DNA from: a virus
Lineage: Duplodnaviria > Caudoviricetes
Length of the DNA stretch: 55,484 nucleotides
Reading direction: 5' to 3' (one strand)
IMG/VR virus record: IMGVR_UViG_3300050331_000110
Location: 1-55,484 of that record
In this document: one piece after another, positions 1,044-17,028 of the stretch
Layout: every line of letters begins with the position of its first letter
Numbering within the stretch: position 1 is the stretch's first letter
Made by a program: the position numbers and the translations under genes
The notes under the pieces: model-generated
What the model was told of the DNA's origin: nothing
Database searches by the model: none
The model's input: only the letters and a program-made list of their open reading frames with translations

Positions 1044-1199
1044 ATGTACCTAACCCTCGTCATCCTTGCCATCCTGTTCTTCGCCTTCCTGGCTTACGCT
1101 CCAGAGGTGGCACTTCAGACGCTATTGGCCGGCGTGTGGCTACTGATGATTGTCGCCGGGGTTGGCAGCATTGCGTGGGAAATCGTCAAAAGGCTCTAG
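1044..1199 (+). CDS. 51-aa two-TM membrane protein (moron, possible superinfection exclusion)
   Basis: Read manually: MYLTLVILAILFFAFLAYAPEVALQTLLAGVWLLMIVAGVGSIAWEIVKRL; upstream TTGCCA(1010)-16-GATAAT(1032); overlaps the 3' end of the giant gene. Confidence 0.6.
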   Translation: MYLTLVILAILFFAFLAYAPEVALQTLLAGVWLLMIVAGVGSIAWEIVKRL

Positions 1200-4100
1200 C
1201 CTCAAACTGGTCCACCGCCTCGTTGAACTTCAGCATCTCCGCCGTGATCCTGTCTTCTATGCGCTTGATGCTTTCCCTTGTTGCATCCTTGGCAATCATT
1301 TCGCGCTTCTGCCGGCGCAGCTTTTGAACCACCCTGTCGGCATGCTCGGCACGAACGATAAGGCGATACTTGGGATTGTCGCGCTTGAACTCGTCGGTCG
1401 GGACCCCATCATCGCGCCGCCCCTTTAGCTCGGTGGCCAACAGGTTGATCTCCTTCAGGTTGCCGTAGAACTTGTTGCCCTGGCTGGACTGGTTTTCGGT
1501 ATTCCCATAGAACCGGCCGAACAGAGGGATCTTGTGCGTAGGCAAATCCTCCCCTGTGACCATGGCGCCACCGGTCTGTGCAGCCTTAGACAGTTCACGC
1601 CCAACGCCACCAGTAACCTGCCCGATCAGGTAGTCAATCTGATCCGCGGTCGGGCTGAATGCGCCCGGAGTGTAGTCTGTGCCACCAGTCGCCCAATTCA
1701 CCCCTTCGGCCATGAACTTCGCCCAAGCGCTTGCCGTGTCCTTGTTGCGCTCAAAGCCTGGGGTCGGCTTCATTGAATTGAAGTCATCCTTGTAAATCGG
1801 CTTTCCGGTCCAGTCGCGGTTTTCTGCCAGCGCTGCGAACGGGTCAATGGCGGTCGGTGCGATGGTCTGCATCGACAAGCCGGCACTTCCGATGGGGTTG
1901 AAGGCTTCGGCGAATACCGCAATCAGGCGAACCACATGCTCGGCCGGATTCTTGAATCCGCCCAGCGCAAACTCGGCCGGGATGCGCCCAAGGTTGGTTA
2001 TGGCGTGATAACCAAGTGGCATCGGGATGGAAATGTACCGCTTTCCGCCTATCGGGAAAATCAGGTTGCGCTCGCGCATGAATTCAGGCGGCTCGTCATC
2101 ATCGAACCCGGCCGCGGCCAGAGCCAAGGCCTGCGTGACTCCCAGCAACACCCCCCCACCAACAATAGCCTTGCCCATCTTGCTCAAGCGCAGCGTCTTG
2201 ATGTCGCCGCCCTTCATGTCAAACACTGTATGTCCGATGCGCGAGGTTCCCTGCATCGCAGCATTAAAGAAGGCGTACAGCGCCCCGGCCTGCTGCCCAG
2301 CCTGCCCCTTGCGGTTGAAGTTGACGGTGGTGTTCTTCGCCAGGCTGGCCGCCTGCTGCTTGGTGAGACCGTTGTCGATGGCGGTCTTGTAAATGGCCAG
2401 GCGCGTGGAACCTTCCATCATCAGGTTGTAATCAGACAGCCAGTCGAAAATAGGGGTCGCCAAGTCCTGCGCCACGGTCAGCGGCACCTTGAGCGTTCCA
2501 TCTGCCGTAAACACCTTGCCCCACTTGCTGTTCACCCACCCATGCGGATCAAGCTCATGCTCGATTGCCTTGGCGCGATCTGCGCTGTTGCGGTACAGGT
2601 CGCGGTAGCCTGTCATGCCACCCTCGTCCTGCAGCTCTTCCCATAACTGCGCCCATCTCGAGGTTGCCGGATGCCCCTTGCGCTCGGCGCGCGCATCCAG
2701 ATAGATACCCTTTGCGGCAGACAGGATATACCCCATCACCTCGGCCTTGTGTTTGGCCAGTGGGGTCGAGGTCAGATTCAGTGCCGCGCCCTGCACGTCG
2801 CGCACCAGGTTGGTAAAGCCGAAAATCGGGTTATATTGCGTATTGATCGAGGCAAAGTATCGCGTGATCTTGGCTGATACGCCCAGCACGCCGCCCAGCT
2901 CAGTAGCGTCCAGGTTCTTCATCGACTGAGCCATGCGCATTGCGCGCTCGTCGTGCTCGTTGAAAATCACCGCCCGTTCGTGAACCTGCCCGTTGCCGTC
3001 CTTGATCTTGGCGATTACCACGTTATCGCGGCTCTTGAAGGTCGGATCGATACGCTCTTCCACCAGCCCGGTCGTCTCATTCAGCACGCGCTCGGTAGGC
3101 ACCTTGCCGAACGTCCAGAAGTCAGGGTTCGGGTTGAGCTTCGCCAGCCCGGCTAGCGCCACGGCAACGCGGTTCTTTTCGCCGCGGACAATCGCCTTCT
3201 CGCGCTGCATGGCGATATTGGCGAAGATGTCCACCACGGCAGCCGTAGAACCGGTGCGATGCTTCACTTCCTTACCCTTAATCGAGAACCCCTGCCCGAT
3301 GCCCATGCTGCCATCGTGATCCTCGCGCATCAGCGGGACGTAGTGCTTGAACATCTGCGCCCAGCTATCGGCCTGGTCCTTGGAAACCAGCCCGTAGGAA
3401 ACGTACAGGTCGCGCGTCTTGGCGATGATGGAATCCACCTTCGCCGCGGTCGCGTCCAGCCGCTTGAGCTTGTCCGCCGGCAGCTTGGCGAAATAATCGT
3501 CCGCCTCCTGGTTGGTCATTCCAGAGCCGCCGTCCTGCATATTCGGGTCGCGCTGCGCGATCAGCGCATTGGCTTCCTTTGCATGGCGTGCGTGCAGGTA
3601 TTCGTCAAGTTCGTCCATGGTCAGGCCGCGCGCCTGCATCTCCACCAGCAGCGGCTTGAGTTCGGTGTTGACGAAATCCTGAGTGCGCTTTGCCGCCCGT
3701 CCGTGGAATAGCTCTTCCTGCAGGTAGGCGTTGTATTTTTCCGCCAGTTGCGCACCGGTACTGCGCACCGCCTCGACCACCCGCTTCAGGTCGATGTTCT
3801 TGTCCTGCAGCTTGTAAACCAGATCATCGAACATCGAAGGCTCTGGAGAGTCCCATGAGGCGCTGCTTCCTGCCTGACCGCCTTGAAGCGGGATACTTCT
3901 CTGCCGTGGAGGACGGATACCGGGATAGGAAAGGCCGATGTCGCCTGTTGCCGATGGCGCAACAGACGCCAGCGGAGAGTCTAGTGCTTCAGAATCCGCA
4001 GGCTTGGATTGAGCTTTTGAAAGTATGCGACGGCTTCGTTCTGCGCTTGCTGAAGCTGCCCTAGTTCGGAGTTCGTCAGTCGTTCGGAAACCAATGAGGT

Positions 4101-7100
4101 ATTGGGCTTCGTCACTGGTGAGCGCGCTTGGCTCAACGCCGAAGAGTTCTCTGATTGCTTGTCCATGACGCACCTCCAAACTGCGAACGATTTTCGCATC
4201 AGGTGTAATGTTACCAGAACGGCTGGCGTTTGTCAGCAGCACCGCGCCAGATACAACACCGCCTTGCGACTGGATGTAGCTCGCCAGGTCGGCCAGCGTA
4301 CCGCCCATCGTGGAAACATCATCGACCAGGACATACTTCTGCCCGGCCACCACTTTCCCTCCAAACTCGGAACGCGCGATCAGGCGCTCCATTGCGTCAG
4401 CTCCGGTGTGGTAGGCCTTGTTCGTCTGTAATATACCGGTTGCCAGCATACCGCCGGCCTGCTCTACATAATGCCGTGCCAGCGCATTCGGTATCTGATT
4501 CTTACCGGACGCCTCCAGTGCCATCACCGGAAGATAGGCCACATCGTCGCCGAACTTTGCACGCGCCGCCTCGATGCTCTCCGGCTTGACAAGATCGGAC
4601 ACAAGCCGCACCGCCGCGCCGATGTCGCCGCCCTTGGCCGCCTTGTAGTCGGCATGGCGTTTCAGCGTTACATCGTTACGGAAGTCGGACATCACTTCGC
4701 CTGTGAATGCGTTGCTGCGCGACGAAGCATTGTCGTTCTGAGTGCGCGATGCCATTACCGCTCCACCCGTATCTTGCACGCCTTCCTGTTCTGATTCTGA
4801 CACCGCGCGTATCTGCTCGCGGAGCATGGCGACTACATCTGCATCGCTCACACCTTCCGACTGCTTGCCTAGCATCCTGGCGACGAAGGCGCGCACCGCA
4901 TCGGCCACCCGCTTGAGCATGCCAAGCAGGTTGTTGCGCATGACTACCGGCACCTTCACACCGTAACGGCTCAGAATCGCGTCATGGTCTCCGGTCACAT
5001 AGGCGGCCGTCAGTTCGGCAATGGCTTCGTCCAGGTGGGTCTTTTCGCTGTATGTCTGGCCACGGTCGGCGGCAATGGCCTTGGCGAGCTTGCGCACAAA
5101 GCCGTTCTTTCCGGCATGATCCAGCGCCGCAGCTATGCCGCGATCCAGCATGCGGATCCCGCCATGCCCGGCCACTTCATGCACCGCCACCCATACCGCG
5201 CGTTCTGGCGTGGCGATGTTGCCCGCGATCAGATAGACGGTTTTGGTCAGCGGGTCATAGATACCCTCGGTGCCTTGGTCTATCGGCTTGGCCGCACGAA
5301 GCGCGCGCAGGTACAGCTCGGTCGGTATTTCCTTGACTGACCGCACAACCTTGACGTTCTTGAACCCTGCCCAGCTTGCGCGCAGTCTGGCGGTGGCTTG
5401 GGTGACGGACTCGACGGTTTGACCTGCATTTTGTGCCGATACGCTCTGCATCACCTCGCCGGAGTCTGACAGTTCGCGCGCCCGCTCCAGCAAGTCGGCA
5501 TTACCCTTGGTCAGCATCTCGACCTGCAAAGCCTTGGCCGGCCTGTAGCGCGCAGCAAAGTCATCGTCCGCCCGATCCAATCCGCTCAGATTATGGATGA
5601 TGTCGGCCAGCTTGATGGTCTGCGCTTCAGCACTTATTTTAGAACTGCGCTCTCGCTTGGCCGCCTCGCGCTCTTCGCGGGTGCCAGCAGTCTTTTCGTC
5701 AGTCAGTTCGGCTACAAGGTCGGCCACCTTATCACCCAGCTCGCGGCGCACGTCCTCGATGGTCGCCTTGGTATCCTCAACCGTGTCATGCACCCATGCG
5801 GCGGCCAGCATTTCCTCAGTGTGCGGAACGGTTTTCAGCACCTCAACCACCCCGGCCGGATGCGTAATGTACGGCTCGTTGGTGAACTTGCGGCGCTGGT
5901 CTATCTCGCCGTGATGCCGGTCGGCGAATGCCTTGGCCTTCTGCACCAGCTCGGAGTCAGACTTATCCTGGCCATCCCTGACCATTTCGGCCTCGAGTGC
6001 CGCTGCTTCCTTGGTCTTGTCTGCCAGTTCCTGCGCAAACTGGAACGGCGCATCCATCCTGCCTTCAAGTGAGCCGCGCTTGGACTTGGCATCGGCTATT
6101 GATTGGCGCATCTCGTCAGGCTTGCGCGCAATGGCGGTCAGTGCGTTGGTCGCGCGGATCGTCATGCCAACCGGATCTTCTATCGGGTCGCGCGCCAGGA
6201 TAACGCCATCCTCGCCCACCTTCATTTCCAGCCTTGCGTAATAGCCCAACACCTTGCCGTCATTGTTGCGGTCGATATTTCCGATGATCTCCACCGGGAA
6301 GCCGGACAACTCGCCGGCCACCTCGCGCCCCTCTTTGCTGGAATCGGTGTATTGCTTCAGCTTGGCCAGCAGCGCCTCGCCCCATTCCTTCCTCTTATCG
6401 AACACCTGCTTGCCAGCCTTTGCGGTGAACCGGTCTCCGCTCAAGTCCTGCACCTTGGCGGCCAGCTTCTCTGCTTCTGGAAGCCTGCGCTCCGAAACAT
6501 CGATGGTATTTCCGGCGAGCATGTAGGATTCCTTCATGCGCATCCGGTTGTCTTCGTGCGCCCGATAGAGCCGCTGATACTTCTCGATGTCCGCCTTGAG
6601 TCCGGCCAGTTGTACCGCCCTAGGATCTCCGGCCGTCATGGCCGTGGCCATCTCGAACTGGCTCACCTCGGAAATGTCGTCCAGCGTGCGCACCGACGAG
6701 TCTCCGGAGAGCGCCTGATCGATGAATCGCTGCTTGCTGGCCAGCATCTGCCACATCACCGTGTCGTAGCTGTCCTTTGTCGAATAGGCGAAAACCCTAA
6801 CTCGGCGGTTCTTATTCCCTTGACGGATGATGCGCCCCTCGCGCTGCTCGAGGTCGGACGGATACCATGGCGTGTCCAGGTGGTGCAAAGCGCGCAGGCG
6901 CTGCTGTGCGTTGACGCCAGTACCCATGTTCTTGCTGCTGCCTGTCAGGATGCGCACGCGCCCGGCGTTGAAATCCTTGAACAGCTTTTGCTTGGCGTCC
7001 GACTTCTTGTAGTCCGACATGAAGGCCACTTTGCTCAACGGGATGCCGGCACCCTGCAGGCGCTTCTCGAACCATGCGCGCGCATTGAACCCGCGATGTT

Positions 7101-10100
7101 CCGCCACCCCGGCACCAAAGCCAAGGTCTGAGAACACCATCTGCGTGGCACCCTTGGCCTCTTCCACCTTGCCGGTTTTTTTGTCGGTGTACTCGAAATC
7201 GGCGTATTTCTTGTATGACCTGATAACGCCATCGATCATCTGGTTCAGCTTGGAATTCGGGTCGGAAGGCAGCGACGGGTCGATGAAGCGCATGTCGATG
7301 GCCGCCAGCCTGCCATCACCGATGATCTTGATGATCGGATCGGGGTTATTCGGCTCATCCCTCGATGGCTTCCAGTCGCGCGACTTTTTGAGCCGGCTCG
7401 CCAGCACTTCCTTGTACGCGCGGTAATCCTCGACTGCTGGGGTGACGACCAGCCGGCGGTTGCCTTCCTTGAGCTTTGGCCGCTTGTCTCCAAGCATTTC
7501 CGCCAGATGGTCTGAGGTCAGGACATCGGCGAACTCGCGGAACATCTGCGTCAGTTCTGGCACGTTCACGAACTTCGAGAAGCGCGTTACCGGTGAATAC
7601 TTGCCGGAAGCATCGGCCTCGATGGCGGTATGCTCTTCGCCAAACATGGATGCCCAGGCATCGAACTCCTGCAAGCCGCGCTCTTCCAGCACCTGCGGAG
7701 CCATGAACCGCTGCACGGTATAAAGTTCGGCTATCGTGTTGGTGATCGGCGTGCCGGATGCCATGACCAGAGACCGGCCCGGCTTCTTCTGTTCCAGCCA
7801 GCGGGTTTTCATCCACAGGTCGAAGGCGCGCTCCGAACCAGTGGAGCTGATGCCCTTGACCTGCCTTGTCGTGGTGAACGCCAACTTGCGGAATTCGTGC
7901 GCCTCATCGACGTACAGCATGTCCACGCCCATTTCGTCAAAGCGCACGTTCTTGTCCTTGCCTTCGCCGGACATGGCGGCCTTGAGCTTTTCTTCCAGTT
8001 TTTCGATGCGGTTCTGGATGTCGCGCACGCGAGGGCTGCGGCTCTTCTTGGCATCGTCCACGCCTTCATCGTCCAGCATTTCCTCCATGGCCGCTTCCAT
8101 CTGGTCGAGCTGCTCTTGGATCATCTTCTGCTTGAACTCAGGGTCCAGGTCGAGCAGCTTGAATGCGGAATGCGTGATGATGACGCCATCCAGGTCGGAC
8201 ATGGCGGCGCGCGTCACGAAGCGGCGGCGGTTCTCGGTATGGAACTGCTTTTCGTCGGCAACCATCAGGCGCGCTGCCGGGTAGAGTTGCAGCCATTCCT
8301 GCGCAAACTGCTGCAGCATGTGGTTTGGAACAACCATCATTGGCTTGTTAATCAGGCCGAGGCGCTTCTGTTCCATGGCCGAAATAACCATTTGCCAGGT
8401 CTTGCCGCTCCCGACCGCGTGGGCCAGATAGGTATTGCCGGTCTGAATGACGCGCCACGCGCCGCGCTTCACATGGTCGAATACCGGGATGGTCGAGGTC
8501 GTGCCGGGCAAGGTCAGGTGCCGGCCGTCAAACTTGCGAGCGACGATGGTATTGAATTTGTCGTTATACAGCGCAACCAGCTTGTCGGTGCGCGCGCTGT
8601 CCTGCCACATCCAATCCTTGAAGGCTTGGCGCATTTCCTTGAGCTTCTGGTTTGCCGCCTCGGTGGCGTTGGCATCGAACACAGTCTTCTTGTCGGACCC
8701 GCTGCCTTCCGTCCTGGTAACGCGGATCGGCCTGCCGGTCAGCCCGGCTTCCAGAATGTCGGCGGCGTTGCGCTGCGGCGTACCCCAATCCGAGGTTGCC
8801 TGCACGGTGCTATACCCGGAAATGGCATCGACGCGCCACTGGCCGGTATGCTCGTTGTAATCCACCGTCGCCTTGACTCCCGTCTTTTCCCGCAGGAATT
8901 GCGCATATACCTCGCTGGGGATCCAGTTCATGCCCAGCGCCGCGGTAATGTCTGCCGGGGATACCGGAGCCGGCTGCGCCGCGATCAGCGCCTCCACGTT
9001 GCGCTCGAAGCGTTTGTCGGCCTTGGCGGCTTCCTTGGCTTCCTTGAGCTTCTTCTTCACGTTGCCGGACAGGTATTCGTCCTGCATCTGCCAGCCTTGC
9101 GATGGAGATTCGTAGATTGACGAGCCAAGCGCCTCGATCACTTCGCGCTCATTCAGCCCGATACGCTCTGCAATCAGCGGCAGGTTGACTGTGCCGGTGT
9201 CATTCAGGACAGACAAGAGCGCATCGTGCGGCGTGCTGATGTTGGCAACCTTGCGCATTTCCAGCACGCGCTTGTGCAGGAACTCGCCCTCCTTGATCTC
9301 GCCGGTTTCCTCGTTGAGCGATTCCAGCGCGTACAGCTTGGAATACTCCGGATCATCCATGAGCTTATTGAGCAGGTCGAAGCGGCGCGACGGCGTGACA
9401 ACCTCGACCTTTTCCCCGGTATCCTCGTCTATTTCCGTAGTGGTGCGCTCGACAACGGTGTTTTGCAGGATGTTCCCATGCTTCTTGACGAAAGACTGGT
9501 ATTCATTCCGCAGAGCTTTAAGAGAAGCCTCCCAATCCCCATCGTTCAGCTGGTCGTATTGCGCCTGATTCACCGCATCGCGCAGCTTCACGAAGTCCTT
9601 GACCATGGGGATGCTCTTGAGAGCTATGTTTGCCGGAACGCCTACGCGCCCCTCTATCTGCATCAGCCGGCCATCATCGGCAACGTAATAGTTACCCTCC
9701 TTCTTGGCCTTCGGATTCCAGTCGATCTCCCGTACCTGGGCGGCCTGTGCGGAGCTTCCCGCTTCCGGCCGGTAGGCATCCTTGGGCAGCTTGTCGATGG
9801 CGTCCGTCAGCAGCTTCTCGATAGGCACCGACTTGTTGGGCAGCACGGTGTACTGGTTCTCGGCGTACATGCCGTTCTTATCCAGAGCACCCTCGCCAAG
9901 CACCATGTCTGGATTTTTGGCGAAATACTCATTGATAAGGTGCGTGCCGCCCTTGACCTTGATCTTTTCCAGCTTCATCCAGTCGTGGCCTTCAAAGGTC
10001 TCGCCCGGAACCTTCTTGCGCAGGAACAGGATGTCCGTGACGACTTCCGTGCCGGCGTTCTTCTTGAAGGCCGTTTCCGGCAGCCGGATCGCCCCCAGCA

Positions 10101-13100
10101 GGTCGGCGCGCTCGGCAAGGTATTGCCGCGCCTTGTCGCCCTGCTTGTCCATGGTGTAGCGGCTGGTAACGAACATCACCAGGCCGCCCGGCTTTACCTT
10201 GTCCATGGTTTTGGCGAAGAAATAGTCGTGCAGCGCAAAGGCGTTTTTCTTGTAGCGCGGGTCCGACAAAACCTTGGTATCCGAGAAAGGCGGGTTTCCG
10301 ATGGCCACATCGTAGAAGTTGTCAGGCAGGGCGGTGTCGATGAACGATTCCACCAGGATGCGCTCGTCCGGCTGCAGGTGTTTCAGGATGGCACCGGTCA
10401 GCGCGTCATACTCGATGCCGGTATAGATTGAATTATTGGACACGGCGGACGGCATCAGGCCGGGGAATACCCCGTTACCGGCGCCCGGCTCAAGAATCGC
10501 GCCACCCTTGAACCCGAGGCGGTCCAGCGCGCGCCACATCTCATTGACTACTTCCTTGCCGGTGTAGTGCGCATACTGCGTGGACCGCTCGGCGGTAGCC
10601 CATTCCTCATCGGTCAACAGCCCTTTCAGGCGGTCGCGCAACTCCAGCCACTTGATCGCGTCCTTGTCCTTGAGCAAGTTTTCCAGCATGGGCTTGCTTA
10701 CTTCCTGCCCATACATGACAGGATGGCCAGCCGCATTCAGCATGGACGTGACCGTATAGTACGGGCTGGCGTAATCGTAGCGGCTCAGAGACTCCTTGCC
10801 GTTCTTTGTCAGCCATTCATGCGCGTCGTTGTAGGTATCGACCGCGCGCTTGACGCGATCAATCTGCGGGTCGAATATCTTGTTCCGGATGTCGGACGCG
10901 CCCCAGCCGATGAACCGGGCGAGCTTAGCCTGCTCTTCGCGGGTGGCCTTGCGGCCTTCTGATTCGAGATTTTTTACAATCTCGATGGCCTCGATGTTTT
11001 GCCGGGCCTTGACCAGCCAACTCCCCTTGTAATCCAGGTCGGAGTCGGTGAAGTGGTAGTTCAGTCCTGACTTGGCCGGGATGTCTCTTCCGGCGGGAAT
11101 TCCAGCTGCTCGGCCAGCACGATCTCCCTTGCTTGGTGCAGCGCGGCGTTGTAGATCGCCGTCCGCTCCATTCCCTGCACCTCGTTCATCCCCTGCTTGA
11201 CCGCTATCTGATGCGCCAGGGATGTCGTTAGCGACGATATTTCCTCCGAGCGCTCCATGATGAACGCTTCCAGATTGCCGCTCGATTGCAGTTCCGCCAT
11301 CAATTCCGGCGCCTTGTGCTTGAGTGCTTCGCGCACCAGGTTGCTCGTTTTCATGCTGCGCTCCTTGTGTGGTATTTTTGCCACTACCCGATGCTTCATT
11401 ATTGCTTATGGTTGCATTTTTTGCTATAGTGTGCTTGGAGGAACCAGAAATGAAATTACCAGATAAGTTTCCCGTAGGCACCAAGTTCTTCGAGTCGGAA
11501 GGCGGAGATGCTTTCTGCAAGATTGGCGACGACTGGTTCAGGCTGGATTGTGAGCTGGGAGATGAGCCGTCGCTTTGCCCAATGGATAACGCGCCGATCT
11601 CGTACTTATTCTCCGTGTCCGAAGAATACTTCTTGGGCGATCTTGCAAAGGCGGCAGCATAAAGCGCCTTCTGCGCGTCGTCCAATTCGGCCTTGAGCGG
11701 GTCGTCATCACGAAGCACTCTTGAGTGCTCATAAAGCTCGTGACCTAAATCTTTAGCGGCCAACATGGCGGGGATGTTAATCTGAATTTCCGCTTTCGTT
11801 CCATCCTTCAAAACCACGTTGATTAGAATGTCACGATAGCCGAGCGGATCAGGCTCTTTGAATCTGTCTTTCAGGCGCTCGCCCCTTCTATCACGGTCTA
11901 ATACAAATTTCTCGCGGATGGCTTTAATGGCAGCCTGAATATCATCAGTTGACTTGACGACAATAGTGGCGCGTAGCAGGTCGCGCATTTTTTCTGTCTC
12001 ATACCTGCGCACGCCAAACAAGTCAGGCGCAGACCTGTTTTCAATATGCAGTTTCTCAGCCGCCCGACCAATCCCTTTCACCTTCGCCAGCATTTCGCCG
12101 ATACCGACCTCATTGGCAATCTCAACAACCATCCGGTCGAACTCCGGCTTATTCTTCTCAGCCTTGGCAAGTAACGGCTTGAGTGCAGCTTCTGCAGCCG
12201 CACGGTCCTCTGCGCTGATGGTTGTATCTTTGGCCTTCGGAGCCTTGGCGATCAGGTCATGAGCGCGTTGCAGCACATCGCCAGGCACGAACTCATGCAG
12301 CGCAGGTAGCTTGAAGTTGCGGCCATCAGATTTCTTGTCCGCGTTGGTCATGCGATCCTGAACGTGACCGTCTTCGCTCTTTCTGGCTTCTGCCTCCATC
12401 CGGTCAGCGGCGGCACGCAGCAACTCGGCGGCGGACATTTCGCTTGCAGGCTTGTGCGGTGTGTTGGCGCGGATGGCTTCGGCGTATTTCCTGGATGGTT
12501 GCTCAACCAACACAGCGGCCAGTTTGTTGAAATAGACAACGGGGTACTTCGCCCCCATGTCTGAAGTAATATCTCCTGCCGCAGCTCCGATACCAGACTT
12601 GATTCCGTTGCGCTTGAGGCCGAAATGCTCGATCAGGAACGGCGAGATTTCAGGCTGACGCAGGTAGGTATGACCATCTTGAAGCTGCGGGAATGCGGCT
12701 TTCCATTCTGAGAATGTCGGGTTTTCTCCGTCCTTGATCTTATCTGCTGCAGCTTTCTGCGCCGCAACAATCTTTTCGTGCTGCGCCGCGAATCCAGATT
12801 GCGCATCCATCGTTTCGCGCAAACTCTTCGCGGCAGCACCCTTACTGTCCATCAGATTGCCAGCAAGCTCTCCGCTTTGCGCTATCCACTTGCCGCGCCC
12901 AAGCTGGCCTTTACCTTCGCTGAAAACGGTATCGGTCGGCAGGCTGTACTGCTCGATTATTGCTTGATCGCTATTTACGCTTCCTGCCTGTGCGCTTGAC
13001 GTTTTTTCCGAAGGCAGATCAAGCAGACTTGCCTGGCCATGGGCTGCGCCAACATCTGCAGGACGGTCAGAACCGGTCAGTAAGAATTCATCAGGGGATG

Positions 13101-16100
13101 GCGCAGAGTCGCGCTTTGCTTTCTCGTCAGCGGATTTCTTGGCGGCAGTTTCGCGCGCCAATACTTCGGCATTGGTGTAGCTTTGCAGAACCGGTGCTTC
13201 CTGCTCAAACAGCCCTTGATTATCAAAGAACCCTTCCGGCATGTTGCCGGCCGCATTCTTGGCTGCCTCGTCCAGCCAATCCCTTGGCAGGAATTTCGCC
13301 AGCTTTGCATCCAGCTTGGCCAGTTGATCGCGCACATAGCGCGAGGCGTCCTTCATTTCGTAGTAGCCAAGGCGGAAGGCGGCATCGAACATCTTGACCA
13401 GAACCGGCATCCACTTCGGCCTGTCCTCCGGCACGATGTTCATTACCCCGGCCATCCCGCGCAGCAGTGCGCCAGCCTCGGCAAGTGCCGATTCCATATC
13501 GGCCTGCGCCTGGGCGCGTGCATCCTGTCCTGTTGATTCGCGCGCATCCAGAATGGCTGCACGGTTGGTCTTGCTGATGAAAGCCCACCCGGCAGGCTTG
13601 ATGTCCAGCCCGGCCTTGGCAATGGCCTCCTTGCGTTGGTCGCTGGTGAGGGATTCCCACCAGGATTTTGACTCTACTTCTTGTTGCGTTCCTGCTTCGG
13701 CGGACCGGACTTCTTGAGCTGCTCGATCACCAGTTCGTCCTGCTTGGTCTTCGGCTCCCCGCTGAACATCCTGCCCAGCAGCGCCGCGCCCTGCGGACTG
13801 TCCCAAGTCTTGCGTCCCTGTGGTGTCATTGTCGAACCTCCTTAAAACATCCTCACGAACCGTACCCGTCCCGCCGAACATATCCCCGGCGGCATTGTGT
13901 GCAGCACCCTCGGCAGCGTAGTTCGCCGCTCCGTTCAGCGCCTCAGTGATGCGCTTGGCTGACCGCACGTTCTGCGCGAACATATCCAGCACCACCTGCA
14001 CACCATTAGAATGCGCCAAATCCTTCTGATTGGCAAGTTTTGTGACAGAAACACCTTGCCGGCCGGCATTCACCACGGCCGTTGCGGCCTCCACAATCAG
14101 CGGACGGATGTCCAAATCACCGGCACCTTCCAGCTTCATCATGGCCGGCGCCGCATTGGATAGCGCGGCGATCACGGTTCTGGCTTCCGGTTCGGTAGAT
14201 TGCACCGCCAGTTCTACCAGTTCCTCACTGCCATAGGCTTGATACAGACTCGCGCCGAGCACGCGATCCACGGCCTGCTTGGTCGGCACGCCATTTGGCG
14301 CCAGGTTCTGCCTTTCCCCTTCCGGCATGGCCTGAATAAAGCCGCGCATCGCCTCGGTGGTCGGCGTGCCGTTCTCGTTGAATGTCAGCGCGGCAATGTC
14401 CACCCTTCCGGCATCGTTGCGAGCCTGTTCGACCGCGGACAATCCAAGCGTGCCGGTGGTGTTGCTCTCGTCGCCGATACTTTCCGTCACATGCTCGGCA
14501 CCGATCAGGCGCACCAGTACCGGTTTTTTCATGCCGCGAATCACGCCAGCATTGATGCCATGCACGCCTTCCGCCTTGGCGATGGCCTCCTTGTATGCCA
14601 GTGCCGTGCCTTTGCTGTACGCCTCTATCACCCCGGCCGTGCGGCCGTTGTTGATCGCCACCAGCTTATAAGGATTGGCGGCATATTCCGGATTGCGCGC
14701 GCCGTCCGCAAAATTGGAAGTGGCGAGCTGGTCTGCCTCGACAACGGCATACCGGAACGGGATCTCGCGCTTCCCGGTAACTACCGCATCCTCATTGCCG
14801 ATATGCTTCACGACCCCCTTGTTTTCCAGGTCGGTCACAACAGGGGCGCCGTTCTCCATGGTTGGGGATGCCATCAGCAGGCGCGGGTTTGGATTGGCTG
14901 CGATGGCCTGCATCTGCAGCACAGAAGCCTTGCTGTTGCGATTGCGGTTTTGCAGGGATTGAATAACCGGGTTTGTTACTGCACCCCGCCCTGCGGCGGA
15001 GTCCAGTACAGCTCCACCTTGTCCAGCGCCGCCCACAGTTGCGCCGGTATCTGGTCGCAGTTCAGTTGATCGGCCAGCATCAATGCCTGCGCCTCCTGTT
15101 CGGTCAGCACTTCCAGCGGCATCCAGTACGGAAGTTCTTGGTGCAGCAGTCGTGCCATTGGCGGACTCCGGTTGTTGAGCGACATTCGCGGCCGGTTTTT
15201 TGATGGGCGCCGCGGGTTGTACCATTTCAGGCAGCTGCGGCAGACTATTAAGGTATTCGCGCTGCGCCACGTTCAGGTGCAGCACCTTCCCCTTGCTATT
15301 GACCAGTTTCTTTCCGCCTGCGGCCAGCCTGTAGCCGCCCAACAGGTATTCATCGACCTGGGCGATCTTCTGCTCAAGCGTGCGCTCCGCATTCGGCTTG
15401 GCTTGTGGATGGCCAGGAATGCCAAGATCCACGGCCGGCTCTTCCGGCATGGCATTGAACGCCTGATAAGCCTGTTCGCGCTTGGCGATGATGGCCTTCT
15501 CTTCGGGCGTGGGCATGGGATTGTTCGGGAATTCCGACTCGAGCGCGGCCAGGAATGAAATACCGGGCGTGCGCTCTTCTGGATTGGTATAGACATCATC
15601 CAGTAATTTAAGGCGTGCCGCGCGTGTTTCTTCGGCCTGCACGCCTGCGACTCTGGCATCCACAGACTCAAGCGCCGACTCGCGCTGGATACCTTGCAGG
15701 TTAATCAGGCCTGCGCGGCGCTGTTCTACATCGGCGCGCTCTTGTGCCACAAGGTCGGCCAGCTCATTGACTGCGCCGAAACCGGTTGTGCCTTGCGATA
15801 AGGCTCCGAATTCGCGCACAGGCGGCGTAGCCTCTTGCGCCGTAGCCGGATCATCCAGCAGATCGGTAGCGTCAAGCGAGGTTGCATCGTCGAACTTCTG
15901 CAGGGCCTCATCAACGGATGGCGCGGCGAGGATGTCTTCGGGGGTGGTAATTTCGTTTGCGGCAGAAATTAACCCCTTGTATTCGAGATTATTGCCTGGT
16001 GCTTTATTGTAGTTGTAGGCTGTTTCGGCGGCGCTTTGCGTGAAGCTGGATAGCGCCTCGATGGTAGCGTCAACGGCATCACCCTTTCCGGTTGCCGCCA

Positions 16101-17028
16101 TCTCGCCAAAGTATTCGCCAACACCTTCGCCAAGCGTTTCCATGCCAAGGCCGGTGCCGGCAATGCCAGCTTTTTTTCCGACCGACAGTGCGGACGTTGC
16201 AGCCTTTTCTCCGGCTGTGACTGCCGCCTTGTAGAGTGCCTTGTCTGCAGCCAATGCGGCATTGATCGTTGCGGGAGTTGACATATCCACCCCAGCATTG
16301 AGCAATACCTCGGCTTCTGCTCTTGCCCCGGCGCGTTTCGCCAACTGCCCACCAATGGCGTTAGCCGTGACTCCGCCCATTTTCAAAGTTGCAGCATCGA
16401 CCGCTGTTATCACCCCAGCCTTGACAGCACCCTCTTTAATTGCCTCGCCGCGCTCCGCCTCGGTAAATCCGCCTTCCGACTTTTCAAGAGCCTTGCCACC
16501 AGTTTCAAGCAGTGTGTTACCAAGGAACATGCCGCCAAGAAAACCAAGCGCGCCGCCTACTGCCGTTCCAACGCCAGGCGCAACCATTGTCCCAAGAGCC
16601 GCTCCCGTCTGCGCTCCAGCCAATCCGCCGCCAAGCGCAACAGCACTATTCGGCGCCTGCTCGGCAATCATTTGAACGGTTCCCATCTTATTGCGGCCGG
16701 CCGCGGCCAGCGTATCGCCGATCTGTCCAGCAACGCCTTGCTCACGGTCAATAGCGGCAATCTCTTCTTGCAGCTTGCGCTGTTCGGCTGGCGTGTTAAT
16801 GGCAGCGGATTCTTTGGATGCCGCAGCATAACCCTCTACATCGGCAAGGTCGCCGGTATAGGTATTCCCGGCCGCACCAACCATGCGCCCGGTTTGCTTG
16901 GCTCCGGTCCAAACATTTTTCACTGCACCGATCAAGCCGCTTGGAGCTTCGGATTCCTTCGGAATTAAATCGTCAAACGCTCCGGCAGATGAGGTGTTAC
17001 CAGGAATAAGATCGTCAAATGCGCCCAT
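1186..17028 (-). CDS. Giant polyvalent DarB-like virion/ejected protein (ParB-like, RelA/SpoT-like, N6-MTase, SNF2 helicase, HD hydrolase, metallopeptidase, PRTase, LPD38-like)
   Basis: 5280-aa uninterrupted ORF; motifs LQNRNR..GAPVV, RDLLRAT/GYRD/EIQI, ILEPGAGNG/GNPPF, AHAVGSGKT/DEAH/QREGRIIRQGN, PYITHP/HDTVED/KLAD, HEVAGH, VLVDDVSTMGGT; lies at the end of the structural operon. Confidence 0.92.
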   Translation of the reverse strand: MGAFDDLIPGNTSSAGAFDDLIPKESEAPSGLIGAVKNVWTGAKQTGRMVGAAGNTYTGDLADVEGYAAASKESAAINTPAEQRKLQEEIAAIDREQGVAGQIGDTLAAAGRNKMGTVQMIAEQAPNSAVALGGGLAGAQTGAALGTMVAPGVGTAVGGALGFLGGMFLGNTLLETGGKALEKSEGGFTEAERGEAIKEGAVKAGVITAVDAATLKMGGVTANAIGGQLAKRAGARAEAEVLLNAGVDMSTPATINAALAADKALYKAAVTAGEKAATSALSVGKKAGIAGTGLGMETLGEGVGEYFGEMAATGKGDAVDATIEALSSFTQSAAETAYNYNKAPGNNLEYKGLISAANEITTPEDILAAPSVDEALQKFDDATSLDATDLLDDPATAQEATPPVREFGALSQGTTGFGAVNELADLVAQERADVEQRRAGLINLQGIQRESALESVDARVAGVQAEETRAARLKLLDDVYTNPEERTPGISFLAALESEFPNNPMPTPEEKAIIAKREQAYQAFNAMPEEPAVDLGIPGHPQAKPNAERTLEQKIAQVDEYLLGGYRLAAGGKKLVNSKGKVLHLNVAQREYLNSLPQLPEMVQPAAPIKKPAANVAQQPESANGTTAAPRTSVLDAAGSADRTGGAGIDAGRSTELRPDTGATVGGAGQGGAVLDSAAGRGAVTNPVIQSLQNRNRNSKASVLQMQAIAANPNPRLLMASPTMENGAPVVTDLENKGVVKHIGNEDAVVTGKREIPFRYAVVEADQLATSNFADGARNPEYAANPYKLVAINNGRTAGVIEAYSKGTALAYKEAIAKAEGVHGINAGVIRGMKKPVLVRLIGAEHVTESIGDESNTTGTLGLSAVEQARNDAGRVDIAALTFNENGTPTTEAMRGFIQAMPEGERQNLAPNGVPTKQAVDRVLGASLYQAYGSEELVELAVQSTEPEARTVIAALSNAAPAMMKLEGAGDLDIRPLIVEAATAVVNAGRQGVSVTKLANQKDLAHSNGVQVVLDMFAQNVRSAKRITEALNGAANYAAEGAAHNAAGDMFGGTGTVREDVLRRFDNDTTGTQDLGQSAGRGAAGQDVQRGAEDQAGRTGDRAAQEVRSAEAGTQQEVESKSWWESLTSDQRKEAIAKAGLDIKPAGWAFISKTNRAAILDARESTGQDARAQAQADMESALAEAGALLRGMAGVMNIVPEDRPKWMPVLVKMFDAAFRLGYYEMKDASRYVRDQLAKLDAKLAKFLPRDWLDEAAKNAAGNMPEGFFDNQGLFEQEAPVLQSYTNAEVLARETAAKKSADEKAKRDSAPSPDEFLLTGSDRPADVGAAHGQASLLDLPSEKTSSAQAGSVNSDQAIIEQYSLPTDTVFSEGKGQLGRGKWIAQSGELAGNLMDSKGAAAKSLRETMDAQSGFAAQHEKIVAAQKAAADKIKDGENPTFSEWKAAFPQLQDGHTYLRQPEISPFLIEHFGLKRNGIKSGIGAAAGDITSDMGAKYPVVYFNKLAAVLVEQPSRKYAEAIRANTPHKPASEMSAAELLRAAADRMEAEARKSEDGHVQDRMTNADKKSDGRNFKLPALHEFVPGDVLQRAHDLIAKAPKAKDTTISAEDRAAAEAALKPLLAKAEKNKPEFDRMVVEIANEVGIGEMLAKVKGIGRAAEKLHIENRSAPDLFGVRRYETEKMRDLLRATIVVKSTDDIQAAIKAIREKFVLDRDRRGERLKDRFKEPDPLGYRDILINVVLKDGTKAEIQINIPAMLAAKDLGHELYEHSRVLRDDDPLKAELDDAQKALYAAAFARSPKKYSSDTENKYEIGALSIGQSDGSSPSSQSSLNQSSPILQKASPPSDSKNLVPTGNLSGNFISGSSKHTIAKNATISNNEASGSGKNTTQGAQHENEQPGARSTQAQGAGIDGGTAIERQSGSVHHGALGGNIVANDIPGASDSGQAGDERGAGNGADGDLQRRAAPSKGDRAGRAAGIPAGRDIPAKSGLNYHFTDSDLDYKGSWLVKARQNIEAIEIVKNLESEGRKATREEQAKLARFIGWGASDIRNKIFDPQIDRVKRAVDTYNDAHEWLTKNGKESLSRYDYASPYYTVTSMLNAAGHPVMYGQEVSKPMLENLLKDKDAIKWLELRDRLKGLLTDEEWATAERSTQYAHYTGKEVVNEMWRALDRLGFKGGAILEPGAGNGVFPGLMPSAVSNNSIYTGIEYDALTGAILKHLQPDERILVESFIDTALPDNFYDVAIGNPPFSDTKVLSDPRYKKNAFALHDYFFAKTMDKVKPGGLVMFVTSRYTMDKQGDKARQYLAERADLLGAIRLPETAFKKNAGTEVVTDILFLRKKVPGETFEGHDWMKLEKIKVKGGTHLINEYFAKNPDMVLGEGALDKNGMYAENQYTVLPNKSVPIEKLLTDAIDKLPKDAYRPEAGSSAQAAQVREIDWNPKAKKEGNYYVADDGRLMQIEGRVGVPANIALKSIPMVKDFVKLRDAVNQAQYDQLNDGDWEASLKALRNEYQSFVKKHGNILQNTVVERTTTEIDEDTGEKVEVVTPSRRFDLLNKLMDDPEYSKLYALESLNEETGEIKEGEFLHKRVLEMRKVANISTPHDALLSVLNDTGTVNLPLIAERIGLNEREVIEALGSSIYESPSQGWQMQDEYLSGNVKKKLKEAKEAAKADKRFERNVEALIAAQPAPVSPADITAALGMNWIPSEVYAQFLREKTGVKATVDYNEHTGQWRVDAISGYSTVQATSDWGTPQRNAADILEAGLTGRPIRVTRTEGSGSDKKTVFDANATEAANQKLKEMRQAFKDWMWQDSARTDKLVALYNDKFNTIVARKFDGRHLTLPGTTSTIPVFDHVKRGAWRVIQTGNTYLAHAVGSGKTWQMVISAMEQKRLGLINKPMMVVPNHMLQQFAQEWLQLYPAARLMVADEKQFHTENRRRFVTRAAMSDLDGVIITHSAFKLLDLDPEFKQKMIQEQLDQMEAAMEEMLDDEGVDDAKKSRSPRVRDIQNRIEKLEEKLKAAMSGEGKDKNVRFDEMGVDMLYVDEAHEFRKLAFTTTRQVKGISSTGSERAFDLWMKTRWLEQKKPGRSLVMASGTPITNTIAELYTVQRFMAPQVLEERGLQEFDAWASMFGEEHTAIEADASGKYSPVTRFSKFVNVPELTQMFREFADVLTSDHLAEMLGDKRPKLKEGNRRLVVTPAVEDYRAYKEVLASRLKKSRDWKPSRDEPNNPDPIIKIIGDGRLAAIDMRFIDPSLPSDPNSKLNQMIDGVIRSYKKYADFEYTDKKTGKVEEAKGATQMVFSDLGFGAGVAEHRGFNARAWFEKRLQGAGIPLSKVAFMSDYKKSDAKQKLFKDFNAGRVRILTGSSKNMGTGVNAQQRLRALHHLDTPWYPSDLEQREGRIIRQGNKNRRVRVFAYSTKDSYDTVMWQMLASKQRFIDQALSGDSSVRTLDDISEVSQFEMATAMTAGDPRAVQLAGLKADIEKYQRLYRAHEDNRMRMKESYMLAGNTIDVSERRLPEAEKLAAKVQDLSGDRFTAKAGKQVFDKRKEWGEALLAKLKQYTDSSKEGREVAGELSGFPVEIIGNIDRNNDGKVLGYYARLEMKVGEDGVILARDPIEDPVGMTIRATNALTAIARKPDEMRQSIADAKSKRGSLEGRMDAPFQFAQELADKTKEAAALEAEMVRDGQDKSDSELVQKAKAFADRHHGEIDQRRKFTNEPYITHPAGVVEVLKTVPHTEEMLAAAWVHDTVEDTKATIEDVRRELGDKVADLVAELTDEKTAGTREEREAAKRERSSKISAEAQTIKLADIIHNLSGLDRADDDFAARYRPAKALQVEMLTKGNADLLERARELSDSGEVMQSVSAQNAGQTVESVTQATARLRASWAGFKNVKVVRSVKEIPTELYLRALRAAKPIDQGTEGIYDPLTKTVYLIAGNIATPERAVWVAVHEVAGHGGIRMLDRGIAAALDHAGKNGFVRKLAKAIAADRGQTYSEKTHLDEAIAELTAAYVTGDHDAILSRYGVKVPVVMRNNLLGMLKRVADAVRAFVARMLGKQSEGVSDADVVAMLREQIRAVSESEQEGVQDTGGAVMASRTQNDNASSRSNAFTGEVMSDFRNDVTLKRHADYKAAKGGDIGAAVRLVSDLVKPESIEAARAKFGDDVAYLPVMALEASGKNQIPNALARHYVEQAGGMLATGILQTNKAYHTGADAMERLIARSEFGGKVVAGQKYVLVDDVSTMGGTLADLASYIQSQGGVVSGAVLLTNASRSGNITPDAKIVRSLEVRHGQAIRELFGVEPSALTSDEAQYLIGFRTTDELRTRAASASAERSRRILSKAQSKPADSEALDSPLASVAPSATGDIGLSYPGIRPPRQRSIPLQGGQAGSSASWDSPEPSMFDDLVYKLQDKNIDLKRVVEAVRSTGAQLAEKYNAYLQEELFHGRAAKRTQDFVNTELKPLLVEMQARGLTMDELDEYLHARHAKEANALIAQRDPNMQDGGSGMTNQEADDYFAKLPADKLKRLDATAAKVDSIIAKTRDLYVSYGLVSKDQADSWAQMFKHYVPLMREDHDGSMGIGQGFSIKGKEVKHRTGSTAAVVDIFANIAMQREKAIVRGEKNRVAVALAGLAKLNPNPDFWTFGKVPTERVLNETTGLVEERIDPTFKSRDNVVIAKIKDGNGQVHERAVIFNEHDERAMRMAQSMKNLDATELGGVLGVSAKITRYFASINTQYNPIFGFTNLVRDVQGAALNLTSTPLAKHKAEVMGYILSAAKGIYLDARAERKGHPATSRWAQLWEELQDEGGMTGYRDLYRNSADRAKAIEHELDPHGWVNSKWGKVFTADGTLKVPLTVAQDLATPIFDWLSDYNLMMEGSTRLAIYKTAIDNGLTKQQAASLAKNTTVNFNRKGQAGQQAGALYAFFNAAMQGTSRIGHTVFDMKGGDIKTLRLSKMGKAIVGGGVLLGVTQALALAAAGFDDDEPPEFMRERNLIFPIGGKRYISIPMPLGYHAITNLGRIPAEFALGGFKNPAEHVVRLIAVFAEAFNPIGSAGLSMQTIAPTAIDPFAALAENRDWTGKPIYKDDFNSMKPTPGFERNKDTASAWAKFMAEGVNWATGGTDYTPGAFSPTADQIDYLIGQVTGGVGRELSKAAQTGGAMVTGEDLPTHKIPLFGRFYGNTENQSSQGNKFYGNLKEINLLATELKGRRDDGVPTDEFKRDNPKYRLIVRAEHADRVVQKLRRQKREMIAKDATRESIKRIEDRITAEMLKFNEAVDQFEARAF
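3981..4166 (-). CDS. Nested 61-aa gene in the +1 frame, over the end of the PRTase domain
   Basis: GGAGGT RBS before ATG; MDKQSENSS...SERLTNSELGQLQQAQNEAVAYFQKLNPSLRILKH; promoter-like site upstream. Confidence 0.65.
   Translation of the reverse strand: MDKQSENSSALSQARSPVTKPNTSLVSERLTNSELGQLQQAQNEAVAYFQKLNPSLRILKH
4208..4236 (-). promoter_or_regulatory. Internal sigma70-like promoter inside the PRTase coding sequence
   Basis: CTGACA-17bp-TAACAT with extended TG, about 40 nt upstream of the nested ATG at 4166. Confidence 0.55.
11061..11354 (-). CDS. Nested 97-aa TnpV-like helical protein in the +1 frame
   Basis: AAGGAG RBS; LQSSGNLEAFIMER...KQGM...NAALHQAREIVLAEQL resembles TnpV from memory; the giant frame here is a low-complexity linker. 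Confidence 0.7.
   Translation of the reverse strand: MKTSNLVREALKHKAPELMAELQSSGNLEAFIMERSEEISSLTTSLAHQIAVKQGMNEVQGMERTAIYNAALHQAREIVLAEQLEFPPEETSRPSQD
11398..11430. promoter_or_regulatory. Overlapping divergent sigma70-like promoters inside the giant gene
   Basis: Plus strand TTGCTT(11402)-17-TATAGT(11425) with extended TG; minus strand TAGCAA-17-AATAAT; locally AT-rich. Confidence 0.65.
11450..11662 (+). CDS. Antisense nested 70-aa acidic protein, candidate antitoxin/immunity for the RelA/SpoT-like domain
   Basis: GGAGG at 11437-11441, own promoter; MKLPDKFPVGTKFFESEGGDAFCKIGDDWFRLD...; converges on the end of the synthetase domain. Confidence 0.72.
   Translation: MKLPDKFPVGTKFFESEGGDAFCKIGDDWFRLDCELGDEPSLCPMDNAPISYLFSVSEEYFLGDLAKAAA
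13674..13829 (-). CDS. Nested 51-aa basic protein in the +1 frame after the ParB-like domain
   Basis: TAAGGAGG RBS 7 nt before ATG; MTPQGRKTWDSPQGAALLGRMFSGEPKTKQDELVIEQLKKSGPPKQERNKK; below the ORF-track cutoff. Confidence 0.62.
   Translation of the reverse strand: MTPQGRKTWDSPQGAALLGRMFSGEPKTKQDELVIEQLKKSGPPKQERNKK
14976..15158 (-). CDS. Nested 60-aa protein in the +1 frame just before the ParB-like domain
   Basis: GGAG RBS; globular-looking MARLLHQELPYWMPLEVLTEQEAQALMLADQ...LDKVELYW while the giant frame is a Gly/Ala/Arg linker. Confidence 0.62.
   Translation of the reverse strand: MARLLHQELPYWMPLEVLTEQEAQALMLADQLNCDQIPAQLWAALDKVELYWTPPQGGVQ

Follow-up and report, generated by a model that had tools for sequence, protein, structure and literature searches.

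How can a phage carry, inside one of its own proteins, a domain that would be expected to poison the cell producing it, and is the antidote encoded in the same stretch of DNA? This question is raised by a 55,484-bp provirus record (IMGVR_UViG_3300050331_000110; Caudoviricetes), the whole length of which is referred to as the window. It contains a giant open reading frame (ORF) of 5280 amino acids (aa) with a RelA/SpoT synthetase-like domain, and a 70-aa ORF is nested on the opposite strand at the end of this domain. The two probably constitute a toxin-immunity pair resembling Tas1 and Tis1, with the immunity gene nested antisense in the giant gene. The features on which this proposal turns are the following:

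1186-17028, minus strand: giant ORF, 5280 aa, a single ORF coding for a phage polyvalent protein
11638-12219, minus strand: Tas1-like RelA/SpoT synthetase domain (toxSYNTH-type), giant aa 1604-1797, recognized by alignment A2, profile, AlphaFold2 and Foldseek
11450-11662, plus strand: nested antisense ORF, 70 aa plus stop, candidate immunity protein with five strands and a C-terminal helix in the AlphaFold2 model

The synthetase domain

The synthetase motifs named in an earlier note on this DNA all lie, as stated there, in the frame of the giant ORF on the minus strand, namely VKGIGRAAEK at aa 1650 (nt 12081-12052), RDLLRAT at aa 1682 (nt 11985-11965), GYRD at aa 1730, EIQIN at aa 1747 and HELYEH at aa 1763 (nt 11742-11725). 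An alignment of eight homologous domains from related viral contigs (A2; its numbering plus 1603 gives that of the giant protein) has 32 invariant columns, and the domain of the window is 39-67% identical to the other members. Residues K56, D80, R83, G127, Y128, E144, Q146, N148 and H160, which correspond to K1659, D1683, R1686, G1730, Y1731, E1747, Q1749, N1751 and H1763 of the giant protein, are invariant in all eight sequences.

Comparison of the A2 profile with the sequences of the PDB gave Tas1 (6ox6_A) as the best match (E 8.8e-13 over 173 profile positions), whereas housekeeping small alarmone synthetases (SAS) of the RelQ/YwaC type reached E-values of only 0.046-0.61. The AlphaFold2 model of the domain (pLDDT 82.0, pTM 0.74) likewise retrieved 6ox6_A as the top Foldseek match (E 2.7e-7), with small alarmone synthetases and Rel/RelA/SpoT ranking next; there were 60 matches at E<=0.001, and all among the matches listed are Tas1 or SAS/Rel/RelA/SpoT enzymes. 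Because of these profile, AlphaFold2 and Foldseek results, the predicted fold of the domain is that of a RelA/SpoT synthetase and its nearest kin, judged by sequence, is Tas1, a (p)ppApp-making toxin, to which the sequence tie is stronger than to the housekeeping SAS.

The nested antisense gene and its signals

The 70-aa ORF is located wholly within the giant ORF on the opposite strand and faces giant residues 1789-1860, which form a Ser/Pro/Asn-rich low-complexity linker. Its product is acidic, with 14 D+E against 6 K+R, so that the acidic antisense ORF described in the earlier note was read correctly. The same note had placed it immediately after the domain; it does adjoin the end of the domain, but it does not merely follow, since it is nested in the giant ORF and shares its final 25 nt with the end of the synthetase-like domain. 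The sequences flanking the small ORF carry the following signals:

11402-11407, plus strand: -35-like TTGCTT, weak, with 3/6 matches to TTGACA
11422-11430, plus strand: extended -10 box TGcTATAGT, of which TAnnnT is kept in relatives
11437-11441, plus strand: Shine-Dalgarno (SD) sequence GGAGG, 8 nt upstream of the ATG
11969-11995, plus strand: terminator-like hairpin and T-run, about 300 nt beyond the end of the antisense ORF

The GGAGG pointed out in the earlier note is matched by an SD-like motif (GGAG, GAGG or AGGA, 5-16 nt upstream of the start) in 30 of 31 distinct relatives, whose start codons are ATG in 29 cases and TTG and GTG in one case each. The promoter proposed there, TTGCTT separated by a 17-nt spacer from TATAGT (11425-11430), held up in its downstream half, the conserved extended -10 box, but not in its upstream half, which matches the consensus weakly. 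A TAnnnT box is present in 31/31 distinct relatives, its end is placed exactly 19 nt upstream of the initiation codon in 27, and the TGn extension occurs in 24/31; in random 45-nt windows of the same loci, TAnnnT is found in 4.2% and its TGn-extended form in 0.3%. A consensus promoter scan of positions 10500-12500 called no promoter, and the promoter claim consequently rests on comparative grounds. GC content drops to 0.43-0.48 around the region upstream of the ORF. Terminator-like sites number six in the region against 2.6 expected, and the hairpin at 11969-11995 may, with some uncertainty, end the antisense transcript.

A profile built from nine copies of the small protein and compared with 1.84 billion proteins retrieved 59 representatives at E<=1e-3 and 21 at E<=1e-10, most of the 59 being 62-90 aa long and aligned from residue 1. 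An AlphaFold2 model computed from the nine sequences reached a pLDDT of 84.7 and a pTM of 0.70. Searches against collections of known families and structures were negative: neither the small-family profiles A3, A4 and A5 compared with PDB sequences nor PHROGs, which was queried with the 70-aa ORF, the neighboring TnpV-like ORF described below and the synthetase-like domain, gave a meaningful match or a family, respectively, and the ESM Atlas returned for the small protein only viral clusters at 0.79-0.83, which is below lead level. The phage GenBank collection gave no blastn match to positions 10800-12800.

Overlapping frames of this kind invite the suspicion that the 70-aa ORF is a shadow of the giant frame, in which case the island would serve only as a linker or as DNA or RNA, for example as an antisense RNA damping the giant gene, and no protein would be made. 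Indeed, redrawing synonymous codons with the giant residues held fixed leaves the antisense frame free of stops in 6-59% of trials per locus, and openness was dropped as evidence for a gene because it is weak (P 0.06-0.59 per locus). Moreover, the small and the giant frame share their third codon positions, so that both look constrained and ordinary dN/dS cannot separate them; identity is 0.36 versus 0.35 over all 36 pairs of the first nine sequences. The comparison of dN/dS and BLOSUM scores in the overlap was set aside as uninformative, since third positions coincide and the first nine sequences are saturated, and discordant substitutions were counted in closer pairs instead. Across eight non-overlapping pairs with 73-98% nucleotide identity, 38 single substitutions altered the giant protein while leaving the small one unchanged, and 14 did the opposite (expected share 0.44 from mutational opportunity; binomial P 3.2e-5). 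This excess in favor of the small frame indicates that selection sees the small protein and that the giant frame is there mostly a passenger. A shadow ORF would also be at odds with a confident fold obtained from only nine sequences, with a start codon, SD sequence and -10 box kept at fixed spacing in 27-31 of 31 relatives, with the Ser/Pro/Asn-rich low complexity of the giant-frame stretch opposite, and with the mostly free-standing state of a sister family (A5, see below) in loci L066-L071. The shadow explanation is accordingly very unlikely, and by these computational results the 70-aa antisense ORF is a separate, real gene under selection.

Linkage, modelled complex and relation to known systems

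Whether the small gene belongs with the synthetase-like domain was examined in two sets of loci. A first set of loci, all with the same layout of the giant ORF, was found through a neighboring gene that is itself nested in the giant gene:

11061-11354, minus strand: TnpV-like ORF, 97 aa plus stop, read in frame +1 relative to the giant gene and divergently oriented to the antisense ORF

In nine of these loci (the window, L006, L007, L008, L009, L010, L013, L014 and L016) the slot before the linker is occupied by a RelA/SpoT-like domain, whereas the same slot holds a Zeta_toxin domain in L012 and L017 and a RadC-like domain in L015. The small ORF is found in 9/9 loci with the RelA/SpoT-like domain and in 0/3 with Zeta_toxin or RadC-like domains. 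A second set was found through the domain itself and comprises 60 viral loci, 35 of which carry the small-ORF family of the window, in all cases on the antisense strand within a host ORF that runs uninterrupted over the entire locus. Another 20 carry the second family, A5, which is also antisense. Taken together, a small ORF of either family lies on the opposite strand directly after the domain in 55/60 viral loci, a count that overstates the number of independent lineages, as many of the loci are near-duplicates. The remaining five loci gave no match to either small-ORF model.

The A5 family (L057-L078; for example L066 3025-3237 and L057 3055-3261) consists of antisense ORFs of about 70 aa that follow more distant Tas1-like domains and share the motif F.DVEG.PV...AWD..PR.FP..SA.RNG. 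It is nested in 14/20 loci; in the six near-identical loci L066-L071 the overlap with a toxin ORF of 304 to 312 aa is only 43 nt, and A5 therefore stands there as a free, convergent gene. Alignment of the A4 and A5 profiles with hhalign gave a probability of 20.6% and E 0.0011 over 62 columns, which is suggestive only, and homology is not claimed. Four of the five loci without a match were inspected by eye, and three of them show an antisense ORF of similar size with a start codon in the same place (L029 3025-3315, L036 3061-3291 and L064 2989-3216, all on the minus strand), whereas the fourth, L072, gave an ambiguous picture. The ORFs of L029 and L036 are alike (MF.VP.GATVW...), and those of all three loci may represent further immunity families. 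In L012 (2782-3060, plus strand) and L017 (2707-2982, plus strand), a different ORF of about 91 aa separates the Zeta_toxin domain from the TnpV-like gene. It is read in the giant +1 frame and could represent a different type of nested antidote. Pfam has no family for the candidate antidote ORFs that follow the Zeta_toxin or RadC-like domains in L012, L017 and L015.

A real small protein could nevertheless have a role other than immunity, for example as a regulator of the divergent promoter region that it shares with the TnpV-like gene, as a chaperone or packaging adaptor, or as a lysogen-expressed "moron". The divergent arrangement of the two nested genes around a shared control region of about 50 nt would fit such a role, as would the lack of sequence similarity between the small protein and any known immunity protein. 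However, the small ORF follows the domain: among 35 loci with the domain, 13 have the small ORF but lack a TnpV-like gene, and because of these 13 loci it is taken to track the domain and not the TnpV-like neighbor. Conversely, it is absent from 3/3 TnpV-like loci with a Zeta_toxin or RadC-like domain, and the interface modelled below covers catalytic residues. A role outside immunity is therefore considered unlikely.

The structural modelling of the pair that had been suggested in the earlier note was carried out and lends support to, without proving, an interaction. The complex of the domain with the 70-aa protein was modelled with an ipSAE of 0.87 (three runs, 0.86-0.88), compared to 0.02 for the best of three controls. 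The ipSAE mark is reached by 58/80 solved complexes and by 2/110 mismatched pairs, a calibration that is rough only, own alignments having been used. At least 95% of contacts are shared between the runs, and the partner has a pLDDT of at least 89. The modelled interface comprises domain residues 55-65, 77-80, 109-125, 128-134, 144 and 160-167 in A2 numbering and includes the invariant D80, Y128, N134, E144 and H160 (giant D1683, Y1731, N1737, E1747 and H1763) as well as the loop 111-115, which has a pLDDT below 50 in the model of the free domain. The complex model thus supports, but does not show, binding of the 70-aa protein over the catalytic face of the domain. Tis1 is the second-best structural match of the small-protein model, and the Foldseek search against the PDB gave nothing at E<0.68. 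On the strength of these models the 70-aa protein probably works like Tis1, which is a claim on function and not on membership in the Tis1 family.

The biochemical nature of the domain bears on a further alternative, which involves another part of the same polypeptide:

5566-5937, minus strand: HD_4 / Mesh1-SAH-like alarmone hydrolase domain, giant aa 3698-3821

Instead of a toxin, the synthetase-like domain could be an enzyme for reprogramming the host, either a (p)ppGpp synthetase with a signalling role or a pyrophosphokinase of tRNA 3' ends, with the small protein as its regulatory subunit. Alarmone-type reprogramming of the host by RelA/SpoT domains of polyvalent proteins was proposed in the available text of Iyer et al. 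(2017; PMC5512222), and the HD domain is nearer to (p)ppGpp hydrolases, its PDB matches being Lmo0812/MESH1 with E 1e-18 and the (p)ppApp hydrolase Aph1 with E 0.0026. This hydrolase domain is present in three of the related records examined (the window, the contig of L004 and G002) and was not found in five complete records that contain both the synthetase-like domain and the small ORF. Against a signalling enzyme stands the proximity of Tas1, whose E-value is better than those of RelQ/RelP-type enzymes by about 10 orders of magnitude, and the occupation of the same slot by Zeta_toxin in sister loci. Furthermore, the available text of Dominguez-Molina et al. (2024; PMC11782079) assigns Tis1-like domains to the blocking of (pp)pApp makers and zinc-finger-like domains to the blocking of tRNA-targeting enzymes, and the partner in the window is a candidate Tis1-like, not a zinc-finger-like, protein. 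The signalling reading is hence regarded as distinctly unlikely.

Several further results weigh against a Tas1/Tis1-like pair and have to be set beside the evidence in its favor. The Pfam family RelA_SpoT (PF04607) matches giant aa 1654-1762 with E 4.6e-5 and 24.1 bits, which is under the gathering cut-off of 27; the scores of relatives range from 17.5 to 27.1 bits, with L008 alone at or above this threshold. Profiles of the small family built from 9 and 47 sequences gave no match to Tis1 (6ox6_B) in the PDB at E<=10, the best PDB chain for the 47-sequence profile is unrelated (E 0.54), and Pfam has no family for the 47 small-ORF members beyond single chance rows. The Tas1-Tis1 complex (6OX6) has already been solved, and the score of the complex model may partly reflect that known structure. 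A look-up of sequencing runs listed no RNA data set containing the sequence. The same side is taken by the empty promoter scan, the five loci without a match, the near-duplication within the 60 loci, and the chance openness, shared third positions and near-equal identities of the two frames. With all of this taken into account, a Tas1/Tis1-like toxin-immunity pair remains the likely interpretation of the locus.

In the proposed mechanism, the synthetase-like domain (giant aa 1604-1797) would most likely make (p)ppApp from ATP, by which ATP would be drained and growth blocked, and it would poison any cell that accumulates the giant protein. The 70-aa ORF, equipped with its own extended -10 promoter, SD sequence and ATG, would supply the blocker in the producing cell and perhaps also in the lysogen, where the small, beta-rich, acidic protein would cover the catalytic face of the domain and keep it silent as a Tis1-type immunity protein. 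In the overlap, the giant frame would merely be kept open as a low-complexity linker with selection acting on the small frame, and the toxin domain and the immunity gene would travel together as one cassette. Upon ejection into a naive host, presumably from the virion, the unblocked domain would act. The antisense transcript might in addition reduce expression of the giant gene, as the earlier note had proposed.

The Tas1-Tis1 pair of the Pseudomonas aeruginosa type VI secretion system (T6SS; PDB 6OX6) is the nearest solved relative of the domain by profile and fold, and in both cases the small partner is about 70-76 aa long and, in the window, modelled over the active site; Tis1 occludes the synthetase active site according to the available text of PMC10083569. 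The arrangement differs: Tas1 is PAAR-fused and T6SS-secreted, and the legend of Figure 1A in the same article depicts tis1 as a separate adjacent gene, whereas the domain described here is internal to a 5280-aa phage protein and its partner is nested antisense. There is also no detectable sequence similarity between Tis1 and the 70-aa protein.

Temperate phages with MuF-fused Tas1-like toxins were reported by Ahmad et al. (2023; PMC10083569). The system Apk2 (BcTas1)-BcTis1-Aph1 of a Bacteroides caccae temperate phage resembles the window in that it combines, as far as the available text of that article shows, a phage-borne Tas1-like toxin with a constant small immunity protein and a variable HD-type hydrolase. 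Its toxin, however, is the C-terminal domain of a MuF protein followed by two separate immunity genes, whereas in the window the putative toxin lies inside a longer polypeptide, its candidate immunity gene is encoded antisense within the giant gene, and the hydrolase forms part of the giant protein itself and is closer to Mesh1 than to Aph1.

The earlier note had proposed an embedded toxSAS-antitoxin pair. Its core, a synthetase domain with an antisense neutralizer, is supported by co-occurrence, selection, fold, modelled interface and signals; the class has to be changed, as the nearest relative is the Tas1/Tis1 effector-immunity pair. In the same way, the range of activities that it had considered probably narrows to that of the closest relative, the (p)ppApp-making Tas1/Tis1, and away from the tRNA-pyrophosphorylating toxSAS modules. 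The toxSAS modules (FaRel/ATfaRel/AT2faRel, FaRel2, CapRel and PhRel) share with the pair proposed here a toxic RelA/SpoT-type synthetase and a small structured neutralizer. Unlike them, the window has neither a two- or three-gene toxin-antitoxin operon nor a zinc-finger-like or Panacea antitoxin; instead of an operon with separate genes, the putative toxin is an internal domain of the 5280-aa ORF and the partner is encoded on the opposite strand.

The second nested gene and the biology of polyvalent proteins

The TnpV-like ORF adds a second gene to the linker. AAGGAG is located 7 nt before the ATG at 11354, which is its probable start, and the open frame would also allow a start at 11399. Three divergent members score 19.4, 20.6 and 16.3 bits with the Pfam family TnpV (PF14198) over profile positions of about 28-110 of 111, compared to a cut-off of 27, and one database homologue carries a precomputed PF14198 label. 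Seven database homologues with 58-67% identity are called as separate genes of 97-108 aa; the profile of the family gave nothing below E 0.02 among PDB sequences. In 11 pairs, omega is 0.39-0.82 in the TnpV-like frame versus 0.90-1.76 in the giant frame, which places selection on the former. The giant frame is open across the TnpV-like gene in all loci examined, and when the TnpV-like protein is fixed and synonymous codons are drawn at random, it is open by chance in only 0.2-1.7% of trials per locus. This low chance openness indicates that the open state of the giant frame is actively maintained where it crosses a gene read in another frame. A distant TnpV-like ORF (27% identity) lies outside any giant ORF at L018 1563-1982 in a metagenome-assembled genome of Pseudomonadota and may show the free-standing state of the gene.

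In the control region between the two nested genes, L006, L009, L010, L013, L014 and L016 share a conserved AGTATA located 40-60 nt upstream of the ATG of the small ORF. It lies about 21 nt from the TAYAnT box, which it mirrors, and reads TATACT on the other strand, where it is placed as a -10 box for the TnpV-like gene. Viewed in the giant frame, the AGTATA and TAYAnT boxes are the sole conserved residues of the linker (G-Y-T/S and S-V/I-A).

On the same strand, the major head (27207-28250) and portal/adaptor (29647-32076) genes precede the giant ORF, which is hence placed in the context of a phage structural module. Its Pfam domains are ddrB-ParB, the weak RelA/SpoT-like match, an Eco57I-type methyltransferase (MTase), SNF2/Helicase_C, HD_4, a weak PRTase and LPD38 (E 4.6e-42). 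The product fits the concept of a polyvalent protein introduced by Iyer et al. (2017), being a protein with many unrelated effector domains and an LPD domain. Domain content upstream of the toxin slot varies among relatives; in the close relative L008, aa 327-463 of the giant frame form an InPase (inorganic pyrophosphatase) domain (E 6.5e-52) that is missing from the Pfam matches of the giant protein of the window. LPD38, ddrB-ParB, the MTase-SNF2 core and the InPase of a relative are likenesses to the polyvalent proteins in the available text of PMC5512222, where the presence of RelA/SpoT domains in this class had already been noted. Neither "overlapping" nor "TnpV" is used in the main text of that article, and nested genes appear to be undescribed there, its supplementary files aside.

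Embedded antisense coding ORFs under purifying selection have been presented for bacteria (Ardern et al., 2020, PMC7457138; Kreitmeier et al., 2022, PMC8850804) and are similar in layout. In the available text of these articles they figure as evolutionarily novel ORFs or with their function as an open question, whereas the nested gene of the window belongs to a wide family and has a specific predicted partner encoded by its own host gene. No literature was found on an immunity gene nested antisense in its own toxin gene, a statement on which the supplements of PMC5512222 and PMC10083569 might bear, nor was any found that joins ppApp with a polyvalent protein. Toxins with immunity are already known in phages from the MuF-Apk2/Tis1-like systems; the nested antisense layout and the nested +1-frame TnpV-like gene appear to be new.

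It is conceivable, if rather doubtful at present, that nested antidote genes are a general building rule of phage polyvalent proteins, in which each dangerous domain would be imported as a cassette of toxin and convergent immunity gene and the giant frame would be threaded through the antisense strand or another frame. Under such a rule, the "disordered linkers" would be passenger frames of hidden, independently promoted genes, which would protect the producer cell and the lysogen and would render kin phages mutually immune to injected weapons.

It is still debated whether antisense ORFs inside bacterial and phage genes yield functional proteins, and the present case offers a family-wide signal, a predicted structure, a promoter and a specific predicted function. 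It suggests that the linkers of giant polyvalent proteins can code on two strands or in two frames, and that gene callers miss a whole family of predicted immunity genes, of which at least 55 of 60 related viral loci carry a member. The proposed pair would carry (p)ppApp toxin-immunity beyond T6SS and MuF proteins into the polyvalent proteins, which are presumably injected, and may indicate how a prophage could arm its virion and immunize its host at once.

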